This document shows, piece by piece, positions 10,122-15,389 of a stretch of 32,000 nucleotides of DNA. Origin of the DNA: Alkalilimnicola ehrlichii MLHE-1 (GTDB lineage: Bacteria > Pseudomonadota > Gammaproteobacteria > Nitrococcales > Halorhodospiraceae). The stretch spans positions 1,980,001-2,012,000 of the forward strand of contig NC_008340.1 in NCBI RefSeq assembly GCF_000014785.1, read 5' to 3'. Position 1 is the first letter of the stretch. Each line of letters starts with the position of its first letter. The translations under genes were made by a program, and so were the position numbers. The notes under the pieces were generated by a model. It worked only from the letters and a program-made list of their open reading frames with translations, was not told the DNA's origin and did not search any database.

Positions 10122-10157
10122 TGTCAATGCGGTCCCCGCAACAGGAGGGTGATTGAC

Positions 10158-10574
10158 ATGAAAGTGAACGCAGCCATGCATCGTGGCGTGGAGTGGTGTG
10201 CCCCGGACACCCCCATCATGGAGATCGCCCGGCTCTTTCGCGAGAAGGATATCGGCGCCATTCCCATCGGTGAGAACGATCGGCTGGTCGGCATGCTGAC
10301 CGACCGAGACATCGTCTGCCGGGGTCTGGCGGAAGGCCGGGACGTGGCCTCCATGACCGCGGGTGATGTCATGACCCGGGACATCATCTATTGCTGGGAG
10401 GACGACGACATCGAGGATGCCGTACACCTGATGGAAGAGCACCGGGTGCGCCGTGTCCCCGTCCTCAACAGCGACAAGCGCATGACAGGCATGCTGTCCA
10501 TGGGTGACATCTCCCACGCCGCCAACCCGGAACTCTGCCGCGAGTTCCTGGGCGCGGTCGCCGCGCACCACTGA
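10158..10574 (+). CDS. CBS-domain pair protein
   Basis: MKVNAAMHRGVEW... with two CBS-like repeats (...IGAIPIGENDRLVGMLTDRDIV... and ...VRRVPVLNSDKRMTGMLSMGDI...). ATG 10158 sits 8 nt after AGGAGG; the ORF-track start at 10149 is a GTG inside or adjacent to that SD. Confidence 0.85.
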   Translation: MKVNAAMHRGVEWCAPDTPIMEIARLFREKDIGAIPIGENDRLVGMLTDRDIVCRGLAEGRDVASMTAGDVMTRDIIYCWEDDDIEDAVHLMEEHRVRRVPVLNSDKRMTGMLSMGDISHAANPELCREFLGAVAAHH

Positions 10575-10607: not shown

Positions 10608-10655
10608 CCAACCCGACCTCTAGCCCAACCCCCGATTCAACCGCCGAGTCGGGGC

Positions 10656-11033
10656 TTAATCGCCTGCCTCTCCGGCGGGCCGGGGGACCTCATGAGCGCT
10701 CTCCGGGGGGCGAAAGAGCGCGCGCTGGGCCACGTAGAGCAACAGCAGGGTAGCCGCCAGCCAGGCGAGTACCCAGGGGCCCGGGTGCGCCCAGTAGGCG
10801 CCGGCCACGGTGAGGTTGCTGAGCAGCATGGCGTTGCCGAAGGCGGTGCGGCCGGGGCGATCACCCGCGTAGGCGGCCAGCAGCATCAGCGCCAACCACA
10901 GGCCCAGGAGGATGGTGAGCGCCAACCACCAGCCCTGGTGGCCCAGGGCGAGCAGGCCCAGCGTGGCTGGCCACTGCAAGAGGGCGAAGGCGTAGGGGTC
11001 GGCGAGTCGTCGTTCCAGGTGCGAGCTATCCAT
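10656..11033 (-). CDS. Small integral membrane protein (about 4 predicted TM helices), last gene of the operon
   Basis: 125 aa. Hydrophobic stretches lie at about residues 14-31, 35-56, 64-82 and 86-103, followed by a hydrophilic charged tail (RPPESAHEVPRPAGEAGD). ATG 11033 lies 9 nt after the toxin's TAG (TAGGGGACCTGAATG, with GGGGA as SD). Confidence 0.6.
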   Translation of the reverse strand: MDSSHLERRLADPYAFALLQWPATLGLLALGHQGWWLALTILLGLWLALMLLAAYAGDRPGRTAFGNAMLLSNLTVAGAYWAHPGPWVLAWLAATLLLLYVAQRALFRPPESAHEVPRPAGEAGD

Positions 11034-11042
11034 TCAGGTCCC

Positions 11043-14000
11043 CTAGCTGCGTCGAAAGAAATGGACATGAAAGGCATCGGTCTTGCGGGCCGCCTCCCAC
11101 TGGGCGTCGGTCATCCTGGCCTCCTTCTTCAGCGTAGCGCTCCGCCGGTAACCGCCATCCGGCCGATTGTCGACAATCGCCCGTGCCAGGTCGTGATCCA
11201 CCCCGTCCAGCTCGGCCAACCGGCCGACATTGTCCGCACGCTTGGCCGCAAGGGCCTCGTCGTCGATATAGAACCGGGTCTTGGGCCGGGCGCGGATGCT
11301 GTAATCATCCAGGGCGTTCGCCTTGAAACGGTTATCCACCTGATGGCTCGCCACCGTGCCGGCGGCCTTGCCGTCCGGCGTTATCTTCTCCGAGCTGCAG
11401 TCGAGGGTCCGGGGGATCCGCTGCTCCGCCTGGATGATATCCGCGATCACGTCGGCGTCGGTATCGCCCTCCTCCGTCCGGTGGGCTTCGGCCTCCGCCA
11501 CCAGCGGGTGTGATACGCCATAGTTGGCGGTGACGATGTAGTTAACGGCCTGTCCCCCTTCCACCGCGTCCTTGACCGGGTCTTCAAACCGGTGAAGCAT
11601 CGATTGTGAATCCCGGTTGTTGGCACCCTGCGTGAGCGGCGTCAGGTTGTCCCAGGTATCCCCCGGGCCGCCCAGATGCTCATTCAACAGGTGCCCACGG
11701 ACATAGTAGGTACCCCCGCCGTCCATGCGCCGCCGCAACAGGTTCCAGCTCTCGTTCTCGGGCGCATTACGCGGCGTGCTGCCGGTCGGATGGTCGCGGG
11801 TCAGCAACTCCACCCGCACCGAGCTGCCGAAACCCGCCGCGGTTCTGGGGCCGTAGATGGCCGGCGTGGAAGGCAGGTCGGCGACCGAACCCCCGGTGGA
11901 CTGCTCCAGCAGCTCCCGGGTCAGGGTCGAGAGCTGGTCCATGGCCTCATCCATCCTGTTCTTGAGTGCCTTGCGCTTCTCCGTGTAGGTCGGCTCGTCG
12001 ATGGCCGAGGCCTCCAACTGGCCCTCCAGGTCGCGGGACTCCCCGATAAGCCCCTCCACCGCTTCCGCGGCCGCCAACGCCCGTCGGCGGGTGTCGGCGG
12101 CGTCGTCCGGCAGTTTCAGGGCGGCGATGAATTCGGCGTAGGGGGTGGGCCGCGACTCGATGGTCAGCGCCTGGCGCTCCTTCTCCGCGTCGATGGACAG
12201 GGTATGCCGTTCCCCGCCCTCGGTCTCCACCTCGCGCTCGGCCTGCCACCAGTTGACCAGGGCGCGGGCCCCGCGCCGCACCGCCCGCCCCCCGCGGCGG
12301 GCCAGCTCCACGAAGCCCTCGCCCAGGCGCAGGGCGCGCTCGATGAGCCAGTCGAGGGCGGCGTCGACCCGCTCGCGGATCCCCTCCACCATCTCGCGGA
12401 TGCGGCTGCTGACATCCCCCAACCCGGCGTAGTGGGCCAGGAAGGCCAGCGCCGGAGGCACCGCCCGGCCCAGGGCATCCTCCAGGTAGTCGGCGGCCTT
12501 GCCCAACGCCCCGGAGGCGATCTCGGCCACCCCGGCCAGGAAGCGGTTCGCCACCTCCAGCAACGCCCGCAACTGGGCGGTCAGCGCCGTGATCACCCGG
12601 TAGAGCTCCATCACCAGGGCGATGACGTTGGAGACCCCGGTGGGGGCGAGCAGCGGGGTGAGCCGGATACTGGCCTGCTTGATGATGGTGACGCTCACCC
12701 AGTTGATGATGCTGTCCAGCACCTGCCCGCCCAGATCGCTCAAGCGCTCCCGCAACGCCGCCCACAGCGCGCCCGGCCCCTCCTCGACCAGGGTGCGCAG
12801 AAACTGCCAGGCGCCGGAGGCGTGTTCCAGCATCCGCCGCATGCGAAGCGCCACGCCGGAGCCCACCTGGCGGCCGATGCGGTCGAAGATCCGGTCGGTG
12901 GTGATATCCAGGATCTGCAGCACCACCCCGAGGATCGAGCGCAGGGAGAAGTCCTCCGGCGGCTCGATCCCGCCCTTGCGCAGGGTGCCGAACAGCCAGC
13001 CGGCTATCCCCGCCTTGAGGTGGCCGACGATGTTGCTGAAGAACTGGGAGAAGCCGCGCCCGGCCGCCCGCACCAGGTTGAGCAGGAAGCCGATGGGGTC
13101 CTGCAGGATATGCCCGATGGCCGCCGCGGCGTTGGCCAGGAGGCTGACCACCAGCTCGGGCGGCAGCCCGATCAGCCGCAGTGCGGCCTGGAAGAAGGCC
13201 CAGGCGGCCGCGGCGAGATCTCCGTCCACGAACAGCTTGCGCAGTATCTCCATGGCCTTGGCCTTGACCTTCTCCCAGAGGTCCGGGAGGGCCAGGAGCT
13301 GGCCGAAGACCGGGATGCGCGCCAGTATCTGGTTGACGATGAAGTCCTGCACCGGCTTGCGGATGCACTCCGGGATCAGCCGCCAGGCCGCGGACAACAC
13401 CAGTTGCGGCAACTGCATCAGGTCGGTCACCACCGAGAGCAACCGGCGCACCACGCCGATCATCCGCTCGATGAAGGGCGTCAGCCGGTCAAAGCCGGCG
13501 ACCAGGCCGTCGAACAGCTGCTTTACCCCGCTCTCCGCCCAGCGGCTGAGCCCGGCGATGCCCCGCTCCAGCCAGCCCAGCGCCCGCGCCAGGGGCCGGG
13601 TGATGTCCAACTGGCGCAGACCGGAGAAGAAGGCCGCCACCTTATCCCCCACCCCGCCAAGCCGCTCCACCAGCCAACGCCCGGAGTCGACCAGGAGGCC
13701 CCGCACCCGCGCTAGCACCGCTTCCACGGTGGGCAACGCGTTGGCCAGCGCCGCCCGGTTCTCCGCCACGCCAGCGCCCGGCCCGCCCTCCTCGCCGGCC
13801 CCCGCCATCTGCTGCTCGGCCGTGCCCAGGTCGTTGCTGAGCGCCTGCATGTCCTCGCCCAGGCGCTTGACGAAAGCGGGCGGCACCAGCTCCCGCAGCC
13901 ACTCCACGCCCTGCTGTATGGGCTGCCAGAGCGGCCGGGTGCGTGCCTTGATCCAGTCCCACGCCTCGCCGGCCTTGTCCTGCACCCAGCCGACCAGGCC

Positions 14001-15389
14001 GCCCTGATCGTTTCCGCTGCTGTCGTTGCTGGATCCGAATAGCTTGCCCTTGACCCAGTCCCAGGCCGCACCCAGGGTCTCGCGAATGGGCCGCGTCCAG
14101 TTCCAGATCCGACGGCCGAGGGCCTTGATGCCGTCCCAGAGGTCACCGGCCACCCCGGTGATGAAGTCCAGGGCGCGGGCACCGGTGCTCTCCCAGAGAT
14201 CGGCGAAAAAGTTACCGACGGGGGCGAGAAAGTCGGTGAGCCGGTCCCAGGCCGCCCCGGCCGCATCGGTCACCAGGGTGCGCAGCCGCCGGATGGCATC
14301 GAACAGCGGCCCGCAGTCCCCCGAGGCCAGCGCCTCCACGATGGCGCCCGCCCGCTCGAGCATGCCGGAGAAGAGCTCGCTCAGACGCTCCACCGACCCC
14401 TCGGGCGTGAGCCGGGTGACCGCCTCCACCAGCCGGTCGAATACGGCGGCCACCCGGTCCTTGAGCCACCCCACCGGGCCCTTGTCGATGATCTCCTGGA
14501 GTATGGGGGCCAGGTTGGGGGCGAGCTTCTCCACCACCGCCATGCCCTTGGAGGCAATGAAGTTGCCGGCCTTGTCGAAGATATCGCCCACGGCCCCGGT
14601 GAGGCGGTCGTACGCCCCCTTGGCCATGTCGATCCCGGCCCCCACCAACCGGCGACCACCTCGGCGCAAGCTGTCAATCCAGGACCGCCGCACCGGCGGG
14701 GCAGTGGCATCCTGATGGTCCACGCCCGCACTGCGCTGCTGCACCACGTGGGTCAGTTCGTGGGCGATGAGCCGCCGGCCGTCACGGCTGTCGGGCCGGA
14801 AGGCGCCGCGGTTGAAGGCGATGTGCTCGCCCAGGGTGAAGGCGTGGGCGTGGATGGCCTCGGAGAGGCGGGCGGCCTCGTCGTCGGTGTGTATGCGCAC
14901 CGCGGAGAAATCCTGCCCGAAGCGCGGCTCCATGAAGGCGCGCAGGTCCTCCGGCAGCGGGCGCCCCCCCTGCTGCAAGTGTCCGATGCGCCGGGCCAGT
15001 GGTTCCGGCAGGGCATCGGCCGCGCCGGGGGCTTCCTCCTCCCGCTCCTCCGGCAGGGGGACGGGGGCGTCCGCCGGCGCGGCACCGTGCGCCCCGCTCG
15101 CGACCGGAGCGGTGGCGGGAGGCGCCCGGCGGGCGGCATCGGGCGACCCGGCGCCGGGGGCCGTCGGGTCGTCCGATGCCGGCGCCGGGCCGCGGGTCAC
15201 CCGCTCGGCGGTGCGCTCGGCCTCGCGCTCCAGCGGGTCGTCGCGGGCACCGAGCTTGAGCCGGGGCTGGAGGCCCGCCTGGCCGATCACCGCGGCGATG
15301 GCCGCGCGCTGGCTATGGGGCTTCGCCACCGGCTGCGGGCGCCGGGCCGGTGCCGGTTGCGCGCGCTGTTGCTGGGCGAAGGCCACCAT
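11043..15389 (-). CDS. DUF4157 domain-containing polymorphic toxin with C-terminal DNA/RNA non-specific (EssD/YeeF-like) nuclease domain
   Basis: 1448 aa, ATG 15389 preceded by GGGGGAG. Domain order: a Pro/Ala-rich N-terminus; the DUF4157 signature (EPRFGQDFSAVRIHTD...AFTLGEHIAF...LIAHELTHVVQQ); an approximately 950-aa helical, Trp-rich middle (AWDRL / AWDWVK / AWDWIK); the nuclease motif YYVRGHLLNEHLGGPGDTWDNLTPLTQGANN...AVNYIV; and an HhH-like tail. Confidence 0.85.
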   Translation of the reverse strand: MVAFAQQQRAQPAPARRPQPVAKPHSQRAAIAAVIGQAGLQPRLKLGARDDPLEREAERTAERVTRGPAPASDDPTAPGAGSPDAARRAPPATAPVASGAHGAAPADAPVPLPEEREEEAPGAADALPEPLARRIGHLQQGGRPLPEDLRAFMEPRFGQDFSAVRIHTDDEAARLSEAIHAHAFTLGEHIAFNRGAFRPDSRDGRRLIAHELTHVVQQRSAGVDHQDATAPPVRRSWIDSLRRGGRRLVGAGIDMAKGAYDRLTGAVGDIFDKAGNFIASKGMAVVEKLAPNLAPILQEIIDKGPVGWLKDRVAAVFDRLVEAVTRLTPEGSVERLSELFSGMLERAGAIVEALASGDCGPLFDAIRRLRTLVTDAAGAAWDRLTDFLAPVGNFFADLWESTGARALDFITGVAGDLWDGIKALGRRIWNWTRPIRETLGAAWDWVKGKLFGSSNDSSGNDQGGLVGWVQDKAGEAWDWIKARTRPLWQPIQQGVEWLRELVPPAFVKRLGEDMQALSNDLGTAEQQMAGAGEEGGPGAGVAENRAALANALPTVEAVLARVRGLLVDSGRWLVERLGGVGDKVAAFFSGLRQLDITRPLARALGWLERGIAGLSRWAESGVKQLFDGLVAGFDRLTPFIERMIGVVRRLLSVVTDLMQLPQLVLSAAWRLIPECIRKPVQDFIVNQILARIPVFGQLLALPDLWEKVKAKAMEILRKLFVDGDLAAAAWAFFQAALRLIGLPPELVVSLLANAAAAIGHILQDPIGFLLNLVRAAGRGFSQFFSNIVGHLKAGIAGWLFGTLRKGGIEPPEDFSLRSILGVVLQILDITTDRIFDRIGRQVGSGVALRMRRMLEHASGAWQFLRTLVEEGPGALWAALRERLSDLGGQVLDSIINWVSVTIIKQASIRLTPLLAPTGVSNVIALVMELYRVITALTAQLRALLEVANRFLAGVAEIASGALGKAADYLEDALGRAVPPALAFLAHYAGLGDVSSRIREMVEGIRERVDAALDWLIERALRLGEGFVELARRGGRAVRRGARALVNWWQAEREVETEGGERHTLSIDAEKERQALTIESRPTPYAEFIAALKLPDDAADTRRRALAAAEAVEGLIGESRDLEGQLEASAIDEPTYTEKRKALKNRMDEAMDQLSTLTRELLEQSTGGSVADLPSTPAIYGPRTAAGFGSSVRVELLTRDHPTGSTPRNAPENESWNLLRRRMDGGGTYYVRGHLLNEHLGGPGDTWDNLTPLTQGANNRDSQSMLHRFEDPVKDAVEGGQAVNYIVTANYGVSHPLVAEAEAHRTEEGDTDADVIADIIQAEQRIPRTLDCSSEKITPDGKAAGTVASHQVDNRFKANALDDYSIRARPKTRFYIDDEALAAKRADNVGRLAELDGVDHDLARAIVDNRPDGGYRRSATLKKEARMTDAQWEAARKTDAFHVHFFRRS
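11142..11225 (-). other. Helix-hairpin-helix-like DNA-binding motif at the toxin C-terminus
   Basis: LAELDGVDHDLARAIVDNRPDGGYRRSATLKK resembles the ComEA-type HhH (L..LPGIG...A..I...R..NG.F.S...L). Confidence 0.5.
11487..11804 (-). other. beta-beta-alpha-Me nuclease toxin domain (Endonuclease_NS_2 / EssD-YeeF type)
   Basis: RGHLLNEHLGGPGD-x3-NLTPLTQGANN matches the RGHLI..LGG.G..NL.P....N core that I recall for EssD/YeeF-type toxins. The RGH triplet is encoded at 11691-11699. Confidence 0.7.
14736..14963 (-). other. DUF4157 (zincin-like) domain with HExxH motif
   Basis: Residues about 143-218 of the toxin. HELTH is encoded at 14748-14762 (cacgaactgacccac on the minus strand). Confidence 0.8.

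Follow-up and report, generated by a model that had tools for sequence, protein, structure and literature searches.

A predicted four-helix membrane protein coupled to a tape-measure-related nuclease effector of an extracellular contractile injection system appears to track the effector's constant body rather than its nuclease

What is a small membrane protein doing directly behind a nuclease toxin, in the place where a soluble immunity protein would be expected? The question is raised by a 32,000-nucleotide stretch of the Alkalilimnicola ehrlichii MLHE-1 chromosome (contig NC_008340.1, positions 1,980,001 to 2,012,000 of the forward strand; hereafter the window), which carries on its minus strand the genes of an extracellular contractile injection system (eCIS). 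The last two genes of this operon encode a large effector with a C-terminal nuclease and a protein with four predicted transmembrane (TM) helices, here called the 4-TM protein. Most antibacterial eCIS toxins are without recognisable immunity genes, which is an acknowledged puzzle (Geller et al., PMC8213781). A preliminary description of the small gene had offered three roles for its product: a holin-like release factor, a membrane anchor or trigger for the particle, and an atypical immunity or sequestration factor. We report here that the gene appears to be tied to the constant, tape-measure-like part of a single effector family and not to its exchangeable nuclease, and we weigh what such a protein might do for the cell that makes it.

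The small ORF (open reading frame) is a genuine and constrained protein-coding gene and not a chance reading frame. The stop codon of the effector gene (TAG, 11045..11043) is separated from the ATG of the 4-TM gene by a spacer of 9 nt, GGGACCTGA, and a GGGGA Shine-Dalgarno sequence at 11043..11039 overlaps that stop codon and lies 5 nt ahead of the ATG, an overlap that suggests translational coupling of the two genes. The GC content at the three codon positions of the ORF (0.73/0.52/0.87) resembles that of the adjacent genes. The antisense ORF at 10692..11513 and the out-of-frame ORF at 10637..10864 have codon-position GC patterns that are non-coding, and no further coding-like ORF lies between the 4-TM gene and the convergent CBS gene at 10149..10574(+). 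For pairs of close homologs the ratio of nonsynonymous to synonymous substitution rates (dN/dS) was 0.12-0.41, which indicates purifying selection. Simple scans found no intrinsic terminator or promoter near the gene. What the preliminary description had read from the letters thus holds: the ORF, its 9-nt distance from the toxin stop and its GGGGA sequence are all present, codon-position GC and the ORF list concur that no rival coding ORF precedes the CBS gene, and both Kyte-Doolittle hydropathy and AlphaFold2 (AF2) modelling agree with 125 residues that form about four hydrophobic helices.

We then asked where relatives of this protein occur. A word-indexed search returned 19 relatives, the closest being DFR31_0516 of Alkalispirillum mobile (90% identity), and an exhaustive profile search with a hidden Markov model found 53 clusters of the family among 1.84 billion representative proteins. 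Genomic contexts were recovered by three routes, namely an exact-protein look-up, a scan of one genome per species and a metagenome scan seeded with the effector body; most of the loci compared are metagenome contigs. Carriers found by the one-genome-per-species scan belong to Marinobacter, Roseateles, Pelomonas, Piscinibacter sakaiensis and a metagenome-assembled genome of the Comamonadaceae. In approximately 24 distinct loci the 4-TM gene stands directly after a full-length homolog of the 1448-residue effector, with a gap of -26 to +95 nt and frequent overlaps; the sole exception is a locus with a broken toxin frame, where about 820 nt intervene (L030). The linkage extends to a distant member of the family (locus L020, E-value 1e-8). 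Two operon layouts recur, Baseplate_J - Tail_P2_I - DUF6519 - (small DUF4157 gene) - effector - 4-TM gene and AAA - effector - 4-TM gene. The preliminary description had proposed looking for co-occurrence with DUF4157 toxins or eCIS loci and had reckoned with homologs lying mostly outside tail-like loci; all members with readable upstream DNA instead follow an effector homolog in an eCIS locus. As far as gene neighbourhood can tell, therefore, the 4-TM gene is exclusively and tightly tied to one effector family.

Annotation of the 4-TM protein by similarity gave little. Profile searches against Pfam, NCBIfam, PHROGs and PADLOC returned no significant match, comparison with PDB sequence profiles returned nothing below an E-value of 2, and a Foldseek search of the PDB with the predicted model returned generic four-helix bundles only, at E-values of at least 0.3 and TM-scores of 0.3-0.4. 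No family member was found in phage and plasmid collections (searched by tblastn) or in viral contigs (scanned). Among the candidates rejected, the Pfam family CDP-OH_P_transf was matched below threshold by 5 of 20 members (best E-value 0.0044), and because these matches cover just the C-terminal TM part of the profile they were judged compositional. The NCBIfam match to AmaP (E-value 0.18) was likewise rejected. An origin of the 4-TM protein as a decoy or a duplication derived from the effector was considered as well and rejected, hhalign having found no similarity between the family and effector alignments. Judged by these searches, the 4-TM proteins are a rare, unannotated family and an undescribed accessory.

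The effector to which the gene is coupled runs from a disordered N-terminus through DUF4157/eCIS_core, a tape-measure-like body and a linker to an EndA-like His-Me nuclease and, at the C-terminus, a helix-hairpin-helix-like (HhH) tail. Within it, residues 254-970 gave matches to nine PHROG tail families, of which eight carry a tape-measure annotation (the top matches being phrog_305, E-value 1.3e-12; phrog_58, 1.9e-11; and phrog_1535, 2.4e-10), and PDB sequences gave no match to the protein. The catalytic motif YYVRGHLLN...NLTPLTQGANN is conserved in all effector homologs, with V instead of D before RGH. PHROG and Pfam searches of the other unannotated ORFs of the operon disclosed no separate tape-measure protein in the part of it that lies in the window (about 15.4-32 kb, some 17 kb). 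This domain order is that of Tme, the 'tapemeasure-related effector' of the Streptomyces davawensis contractile injection system (CIS), where DUF4157 precedes a tape-measure-like region, followed by an EndA-like nuclease that bears RGH and H-N-N motifs (PMC11126660). The same paper reports that the toxicity of full-length Tme in E. coli stems from its nuclease and exceeds that of the C-terminal nuclease domain alone; a text search of it gave no mention of immunity. The window effector shares with Tme the DUF4157 domain, the remote tape-measure homology, the C-terminal EndA-like His-Me nuclease (RGH...N...N) and the status of largest ORF of its cluster, and on the strength of the DUF4157 domain, the body and the nuclease we class it as Tme-like. 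It differs in standing not directly upstream of baseplate genes but as the penultimate gene, after DUF6519, and in having an extra HhH tail, a recombining nuclease module and a dedicated 4-TM partner. It is a new, proteobacterial member of the Tme-like group, set apart by its place in the operon and by a nuclease cassette that recombines. The tape-measure-like character of the toxin body and the recombining nature of its nuclease end had both been overlooked in the preliminary description. As a separate observation on these effectors, those with an HhH tail end in [FY]x[VLI][RH][LFI][FY][RSQ]R followed by the stop codon or by one more residue (for example RLRLYRR or HVHFFRRS). The motif was seen in the window (11046-11070) and in L003, L006, L009, L011, L014, L015 and L016, and tail-less effectors end otherwise.

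Which part of this composite protein does the 4-TM gene follow? Three pairs of loci are closely similar in the body and in the 4-TM protein and far apart in the nuclease module. Amino acid identities in these three regions (body, 4-TM protein, nuclease module) are 94%, 87% and 40% for L012 and L014; 96%, 96% and 45% for L003 and L011; and 93%, 97% and 57% for the window and L021; overall, swapped pairs span 93-96%, 85-97% and 40-57%. The DNA of all three pairs has a high-low-high identity profile. Between the window and L021 identity is 0.85-0.97 upstream, 0.34-0.67 in the cassette and 0.77-0.89 in the 4-TM gene, and between close relatives in general identity in the cassette falls from more than 0.9 to 0.3-0.6. 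The drop starts at approximately effector residue 1015-1080, and identity is regained near the start codon of the 4-TM gene, inside its first 100-150 nt or so. The nuclease comes in two subtypes, one with the motif ANNRxxxSM and the other with a 4-residue deletion, and the HhH tail may be present or absent; both features are mosaic relative to the type of 4-TM protein. A mirror-tree comparison gave the same picture. Pairwise distances of the 4-TM protein, which are non-independent observations, correlate with those of the N-terminal region, DUF4157 and the body at r of 0.6-0.8 (body, 0.6-0.72) and with those of the nuclease at r of 0.42; the partial correlation is 0.5-0.64 for the body given the nuclease and just 0.12-0.17 for the nuclease given the body. 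The comparison indicates that the 4-TM protein is tied to the constant part of the effector, independently of nuclease subtype, and that one type of 4-TM protein serves very different nuclease modules.

This result bears directly on classical cognate immunity, in which the 4-TM protein would bind and inhibit the nuclease domain. In polymorphic toxin systems the cognate immunity gene moves together with the toxic domain. Here the nuclease module has been swapped while the body and the 4-TM protein stayed constant, which argues that the latter is not a nuclease-specific immunity protein. The gene does occupy the canonical position of an immunity gene, directly 3' of the toxin gene and translationally coupled to it, and downstream immunity genes are documented for some CIS effectors, namely RS14785 for a different nuclease-type effector (J Bacteriol 2026, PMC13277306) and the partner of EAT5 (PMC8213781). 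Nevertheless, nuclease modules of only 40-45% identity are paired with 4-TM proteins of 85-96% identity, the partial correlation with nuclease divergence is as low as given above, and the gene is missing in some loci whose effectors retain an intact GH...N...N motif (9 of 22; see below). In addition, the protein is almost wholly embedded in the membrane, and most members of the family are without a soluble domain. Classical immunity is effectively refuted by these data, and we give it next to no chance of being correct. The third role offered at the outset accordingly splits in two: its sense of a classical inhibitor is contradicted by the swapped nuclease and by the loci that do without the gene, and its sense of sequestration fits best among the possibilities considered.

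Topology determines which compartment the conserved residues of the 4-TM protein would face. Kyte-Doolittle analysis places hydrophobic segments at approximately residues 14-31, 35-55, 64-82 and 87-106, and an AF2 model built with 20 homologs (mean pLDDT 74) places helices at residues 20-29, 35-55, 62-82 and 87-106. In the model the four helices pack into a compact bundle, joined by loops of 4-10 residues, those on the periplasmic side having 4-6. Lysine and arginine are distributed very unevenly: loops 1 and 3 have a mean of 0.03-0.05 per family sequence, compared with 1.9 for loop 2 and 2.4 for the proximal tail; by the positive-inside rule this bias predicts a topology with both termini inside (N-in/C-in), which answers the call for a topology prediction made in the preliminary description. 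Across 61 members W21 and P22 are invariant, and P13-A23 (xFALLQWPA), Y55, R59, F65-G66-N67 and A102-Q103-R104 are highly conserved; in the window protein these motifs read P13-FALLQWPA23, Y55..R59..FGN67 and AQR104. With the termini inside, the main conserved patch (P13-A23, Y55-N67, A102-R104) would be situated in the leaflet on the cytoplasmic side or at its interface, and the conserved turn markers W35, P84 and W87 would be the only conserved residues at the periplasmic loops. The 4-TM protein is accordingly predicted to be an inner-membrane protein whose conserved surface is directed toward the cytoplasm. Some members are longer: P0011 (L009, 2012-2626), P0041, P0045, P0046 and P0076 have an extra N-terminal domain of approximately 70 residues, modelled by AF2 as a beta-alpha-beta-beta-beta fold (pLDDT about 87), which the N-in topology would place in the cytoplasm. 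Foldseek searches with this domain returned generic RRM/ferredoxin-like folds only (Hera RRM, MzrA) and gave no functional clue.

The same anatomy can be set against the idea of a holin-like factor that would permeabilise the inner membrane of the producer and so free the particles. The protein is small and polytopic, it is encoded by the last gene of the operon and it has a hydrophilic C-terminus, so that in size, in its several TM helices, in its terminus and in its end position in a tail-like cluster it resembles holins and the lysis cassette of the Afp cluster. eCIS particles are generally freed by lysis, and the Afp cluster does have a lysis cassette with a holin (PMC12961389, PMC8213781). 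Independence of nuclease subtype, as seen here, is also what a holin would be expected to display. On the other hand, no significant holin match was found in Pfam, NCBIfam or PHROGs, the nearest being a match of 1 of 20 members to Phage_holin_3_6 at an E-value of 0.28. The known lysis cassettes of eCIS and tailocins pair the holin with a lysin (PMC12961389), and no lysozyme, endolysin, endopeptidase or spanin is found among the called neighbours in the window, in L001-L010 or in L020. Holins usually end in a conserved, strongly charged and mostly basic cytoplasmic tail. The preliminary description had noted a charged hydrophilic tail, and such a tail does exist at residues 105-125 of the window protein, but it is net acidic (2 K/R against 4 D/E, net -2) and it is unconserved across the family, in which tails range from 8 to 87 residues with a median net charge of +1 and a net charge of zero or below in 48% of members; two membrane-proximal arginines are common. 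Strongly conserved motifs with an invariant WP on the cytoplasmic side are atypical of holins. Moreover, the gene is confined to one effector subfamily, where it always follows the effector gene in two different layouts, and it is absent from sister loci of identical layout. The holin proposal of the preliminary description thus finds no support in family matches, lysin genes or linkage and little in the variable tail, and we consider this role improbable.

Taking these observations together, we tentatively favour, at clearly less than even confidence, a reading in which the 4-TM protein would tether the constant body of the effector to the cytoplasmic face of the membrane, or sequester it there. 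The exclusive linkage, the tracking of the constant body, the cytoplasmic orientation and the literature context are what lead us to prefer it. According to this model, the 4-TM protein would be made from the effector's transcript, directly after the effector, and would insert into the inner membrane of the producer with both termini and the conserved patch in the cytoplasm. There it might bind freshly made effector and keep it at the membrane, off the chromosome and harmless. The effector would presumably be let go only when the AAA+ ATPase unfolded it for loading into the tube; for the DUF4157 cargo of AlgoCIS, loading via a disordered N-terminus by an AAA+ ATPase, which probably unfolds the cargo, has been described (bioRxiv 10.64898/2026.05.27.728243). 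Recognition of the constant body (DUF4157 plus the tape-measure-like region) rather than of the enzyme would allow one partner to serve any nuclease cassette, and such a partner would be useful without being essential. Both the physical binding of the effector and its sequestration as the purpose of the protein are what we infer from the pattern of linkage and the predicted topology.

Several findings weigh against a tether. In a sample seeded with the effector body, and so unbiased with respect to the 4-TM gene, 22 loci had readable 3' flanks; the gene was present in 13 and absent from 9. The effectors without a partner keep the intact catalytic motif GH...N...N, they occur in both operon layouts, and in a neighbour-joining tree of one effector region they are scattered, apparently as the result of several independent losses. 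With approximately 40% of intact-motif effectors lacking it, the 4-TM gene must be dispensable. Most of the nine partner-less loci have a convergent unrelated gene immediately after the effector, and no 4-TM family member was found in their retrieved flanks, which extend up to 10 kb per side. Second, no documented precedent for a membrane tether of a nuclease effector was found in the literature. Third, the effector body has no evident membrane affinity of its own: its helices are moderately hydrophobic (maximum Kyte-Doolittle value 1.59), and since no segment reaches the TM threshold of 1.6 a membrane-spanning body is not claimed. Fourth, the predicted topology draws upon hydropathy, charge bias and an AF2 model of moderate confidence. 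Fifth, the 4-TM genes of L003 and L011 share 92% DNA identity and their bodies 98-99%, and the history of exchange may have been more complex than a single cassette swap. Finally, the mirror-tree and mosaic data exclude nuclease-specific immunity and do not separate a tether from an exclusion factor, a holin or an adaptor.

The partner-less loci are informative in other respects. The preliminary description had allowed that a producer might cope without any dedicated inhibitor, and these loci support that idea for the toxin family as a whole, in line with the question that Geller et al. (PMC8213781) left open. Comparison of the two groups of effectors also provides a weak lead to a candidate contact site for the 4-TM protein: partner-less effectors diverge most from the partner-bearing consensus at residues 261-325 (approximately 14415-14609, minus strand), just after DUF4157, where the difference in divergence is 0.2 against a mean of 0.04 +/- 0.07, a value drawn from few independent lineages. 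Two loci (L018, 3837-6660; L019, 5546-6786) have a related effector in the tape-measure slot and no 4-TM gene, in the order AAA - effector - tube initiator - LysM-like - GPD - VgrG - gp25; the effector frame is split there into two or three ORFs, probably by assembly frameshifts. In a further partner-less locus (L045, 2682-3403) the effector is followed by ORFs resembling a MazE/AbrB-type antitoxin and a MazF/PemK-type toxin, and one family representative, P0042, seems to run into a similar MazE-like C-terminus.

A protein that follows the delivery body could also act on the receiving side. Pore-forming colicins have immunity proteins with 3-4 TM segments that reside in the inner membrane, and an exclusion factor of that style, or of the superinfection exclusion (Sie) type, would be lodged in the inner membrane, both in producers and in their kin, and block the incoming tape-measure-like module, so that the nuclease would not reach the cytoplasm whatever its subtype. 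Several observations are in keeping with such a role. The effector body matches phage tape-measure families, and tape-measure proteins are thought to build a membrane conduit; the polymorphism of the C-terminal cassette points to antagonism between bacteria. Injection is blocked by small Sie proteins of the inner membrane (P22 SieA, which has 3 predicted TM segments, HK97 gp15 and TP-J34 Ltp), and mutations that escape them map to ejection or tape-measure proteins (PMC10883804). The 4-TM protein resembles these in being a small inner-membrane protein encoded by the same element as a putative injection component; a specificity for the conduit or tape measure and not for its cargo would be a further likeness. 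Its divergence follows the body and not the nuclease, as translocation-level immunity predicts, and such immunity would leave cassettes free to exchange; this correlation is evidence of co-inheritance and no measure of specificity. There are, however, differences. Both the conserved residues and the extra domain of some members are predicted to be cytoplasmic rather than periplasmic, the periplasmic loops are short and little conserved, and the 4-TM gene, unlike those for Sie proteins, is coupled to the tape-measure-like gene itself. Neither Sie nor colicin immunity proteins share sequence or fold with it in Pfam, PHROGs, PADLOC, the PDB or Foldseek searches. The gene has been lost repeatedly, the effector body has no clear TM segments, and this eCIS is not known to target bacteria. 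The likeness to colicin immunity proteins, namely a small polytopic protein, a toxin-adjacent gene and action within the membrane rather than at the enzyme's active site, is similarly offset by a toxin that is a nuclease and not a pore, by the lack of homology and by frequent absence where colicin immunity is obligatory. Membrane-embedded immunity and exclusion proteins are the nearest functional analogies of the 4-TM protein, although family membership fails on homology, and we regard exclusion of incoming effector as an unlikely explanation.

The cytoplasmic orientation of the conserved surface would suit yet another role, that of an adaptor or firing trigger that would link the assembled CIS or the effector with the cytoplasmic membrane so that firing takes place inside the cell, for example to release DNA, as has been proposed for the CIS of S. 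davawensis. CisA is a membrane protein encoded in a CIS cluster and needed for firing (PMC12237407), and the Tme-bearing CIS of S. davawensis act on the producer and release extracellular DNA (PMC11126660). CisA of Streptomyces coelicolor, however, is a single-pass protein of approximately 470 residues; its cytoplasmic N-terminus is long and disordered, and its external domain is folded and substrate-binding-like (PMC12237407). Both proteins are encoded in a CIS cluster and turn toward the cytoplasm a part for which contact with a CIS component is proposed, whereas CisA is bitopic and conserved across its lineage and the 125-residue 4-TM protein packs four helices compactly with minimal loops and has a patchy distribution, lacking in about 40% of sister loci including those with the same layouts. 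In addition, Tail_P2_I and DUF6519 genes stand directly upstream of the effector gene; if they are taken as fibre-related, as we infer, they would argue for an extracellular particle. The anchor or trigger of the preliminary description is thus conceivable, but its distance from CisA and its absence from sister loci make it, in our estimation, quite improbable.

The surroundings of the gene pair vary between lineages. The window carries Pvc16_N, AAA, CIS_tube, GPD, Phage_base_V, gp25, Baseplate_J, Tail_P2_I and DUF6519 genes on its minus strand, and its features are collected in Table 1. The DUF6519 ORF (15414-19358, minus, 1314 residues) overlaps the Tail_P2_I ORF (18353-20104) by about 1 kb; since the A. 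mobile ortholog has 966 residues, the true start of the window gene is probably later. The A. mobile locus (L001, 10440-14025) otherwise keeps the gene order of the window (CBS, Na/Pi cotransporter, PhoU, M20 peptidase) and contains three genes with no counterpart there. One, encoding 369 residues with no Pfam match, stands immediately behind the 4-TM gene; the other two, a 245-residue gene and a patatin gene, separate the CBS gene from the Na/Pi cotransporter gene. In Burkholderiales loci (L006, 1890-6251; L007, 2095-3476; L012, 10430-14785) the effector and 4-TM genes are followed on the same strand by three genes, for a lipid A acyltransferase (Lip_A_acyltrans), an Asp/Arg hydroxylase (LpxO-like) and an HTH_77/TPR regulator, so that genes of lipid A remodelling adjoin an eCIS effector.

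Table 1. Coordinates of the 4-TM gene, the effector gene and associated features in the window
Feature	Coordinates	Strand	Evidence
4-TM protein gene	10656..11033	minus	ATG start, 125 aa
Toxin/4-TM junction	11034..11045	minus	TAG, 9-nt spacer, ATG; read from sequence
Tme-like eCIS effector, 1448 aa	11043..15389	minus	Pfam, PHROG, full-length homologs, Tme architecture
eCIS_core/DUF4157, aa 144-221, HExxH motif	14727..14960	minus	PF13699, E 8.2e-34
Tape-measure-like constant body, aa ~254-970	12480..14630	minus	PHROG matches
Variable C-terminal cassette (linker, nuclease, HhH tail)	11043..12150	minus	identity profiles
Endonuclea_NS_2, aa 1223-1291	11517..11723	minus	PF13930, E 2e-6
Convergent CBS-domain gene, operon end marker	10149..10574	plus	PF00571, E 8e-31; synteny with Alkalispirillum mobile

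Text searches of PMC8213781 and PMC11297309 disclosed no transmembrane or membrane-protein partner of an effector, and a search of the 2026 review (PMC12961389) for holins and immunity brought up none either. Against this background the Tme-like effector and its 4-TM partner form a defined and conserved two-gene module. If the protein recognises the tape-measure-derived delivery body, whether by holding it at the membrane or by a Sie-like exclusion of siblings, this would be the first case of cargo-independent self-protection in a CIS, a proposal that we offer as somewhat unlikely but worth stating. Were it a lysis or docking factor instead, the 4-TM protein would nonetheless add an accessory, so far undescribed, to a widespread group of CIS. 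The family supplies natural contrasts, between partner-bearing and partner-less sister loci and between exchanged cassettes and a constant partner, that make the question of how producers survive their own effector testable. If the partner does act on the tape-measure-like body, it would represent self-protection by a new logic, with the delivery module and not the enzyme as its target. Such a logic would explain how nuclease cassettes are shuffled without co-shuffled immunity genes and would be a partial answer to the puzzle of the missing immunity genes, and it would be relevant to the engineering of eCIS with exchangeable C-terminal payloads, as has been proposed for Tme.

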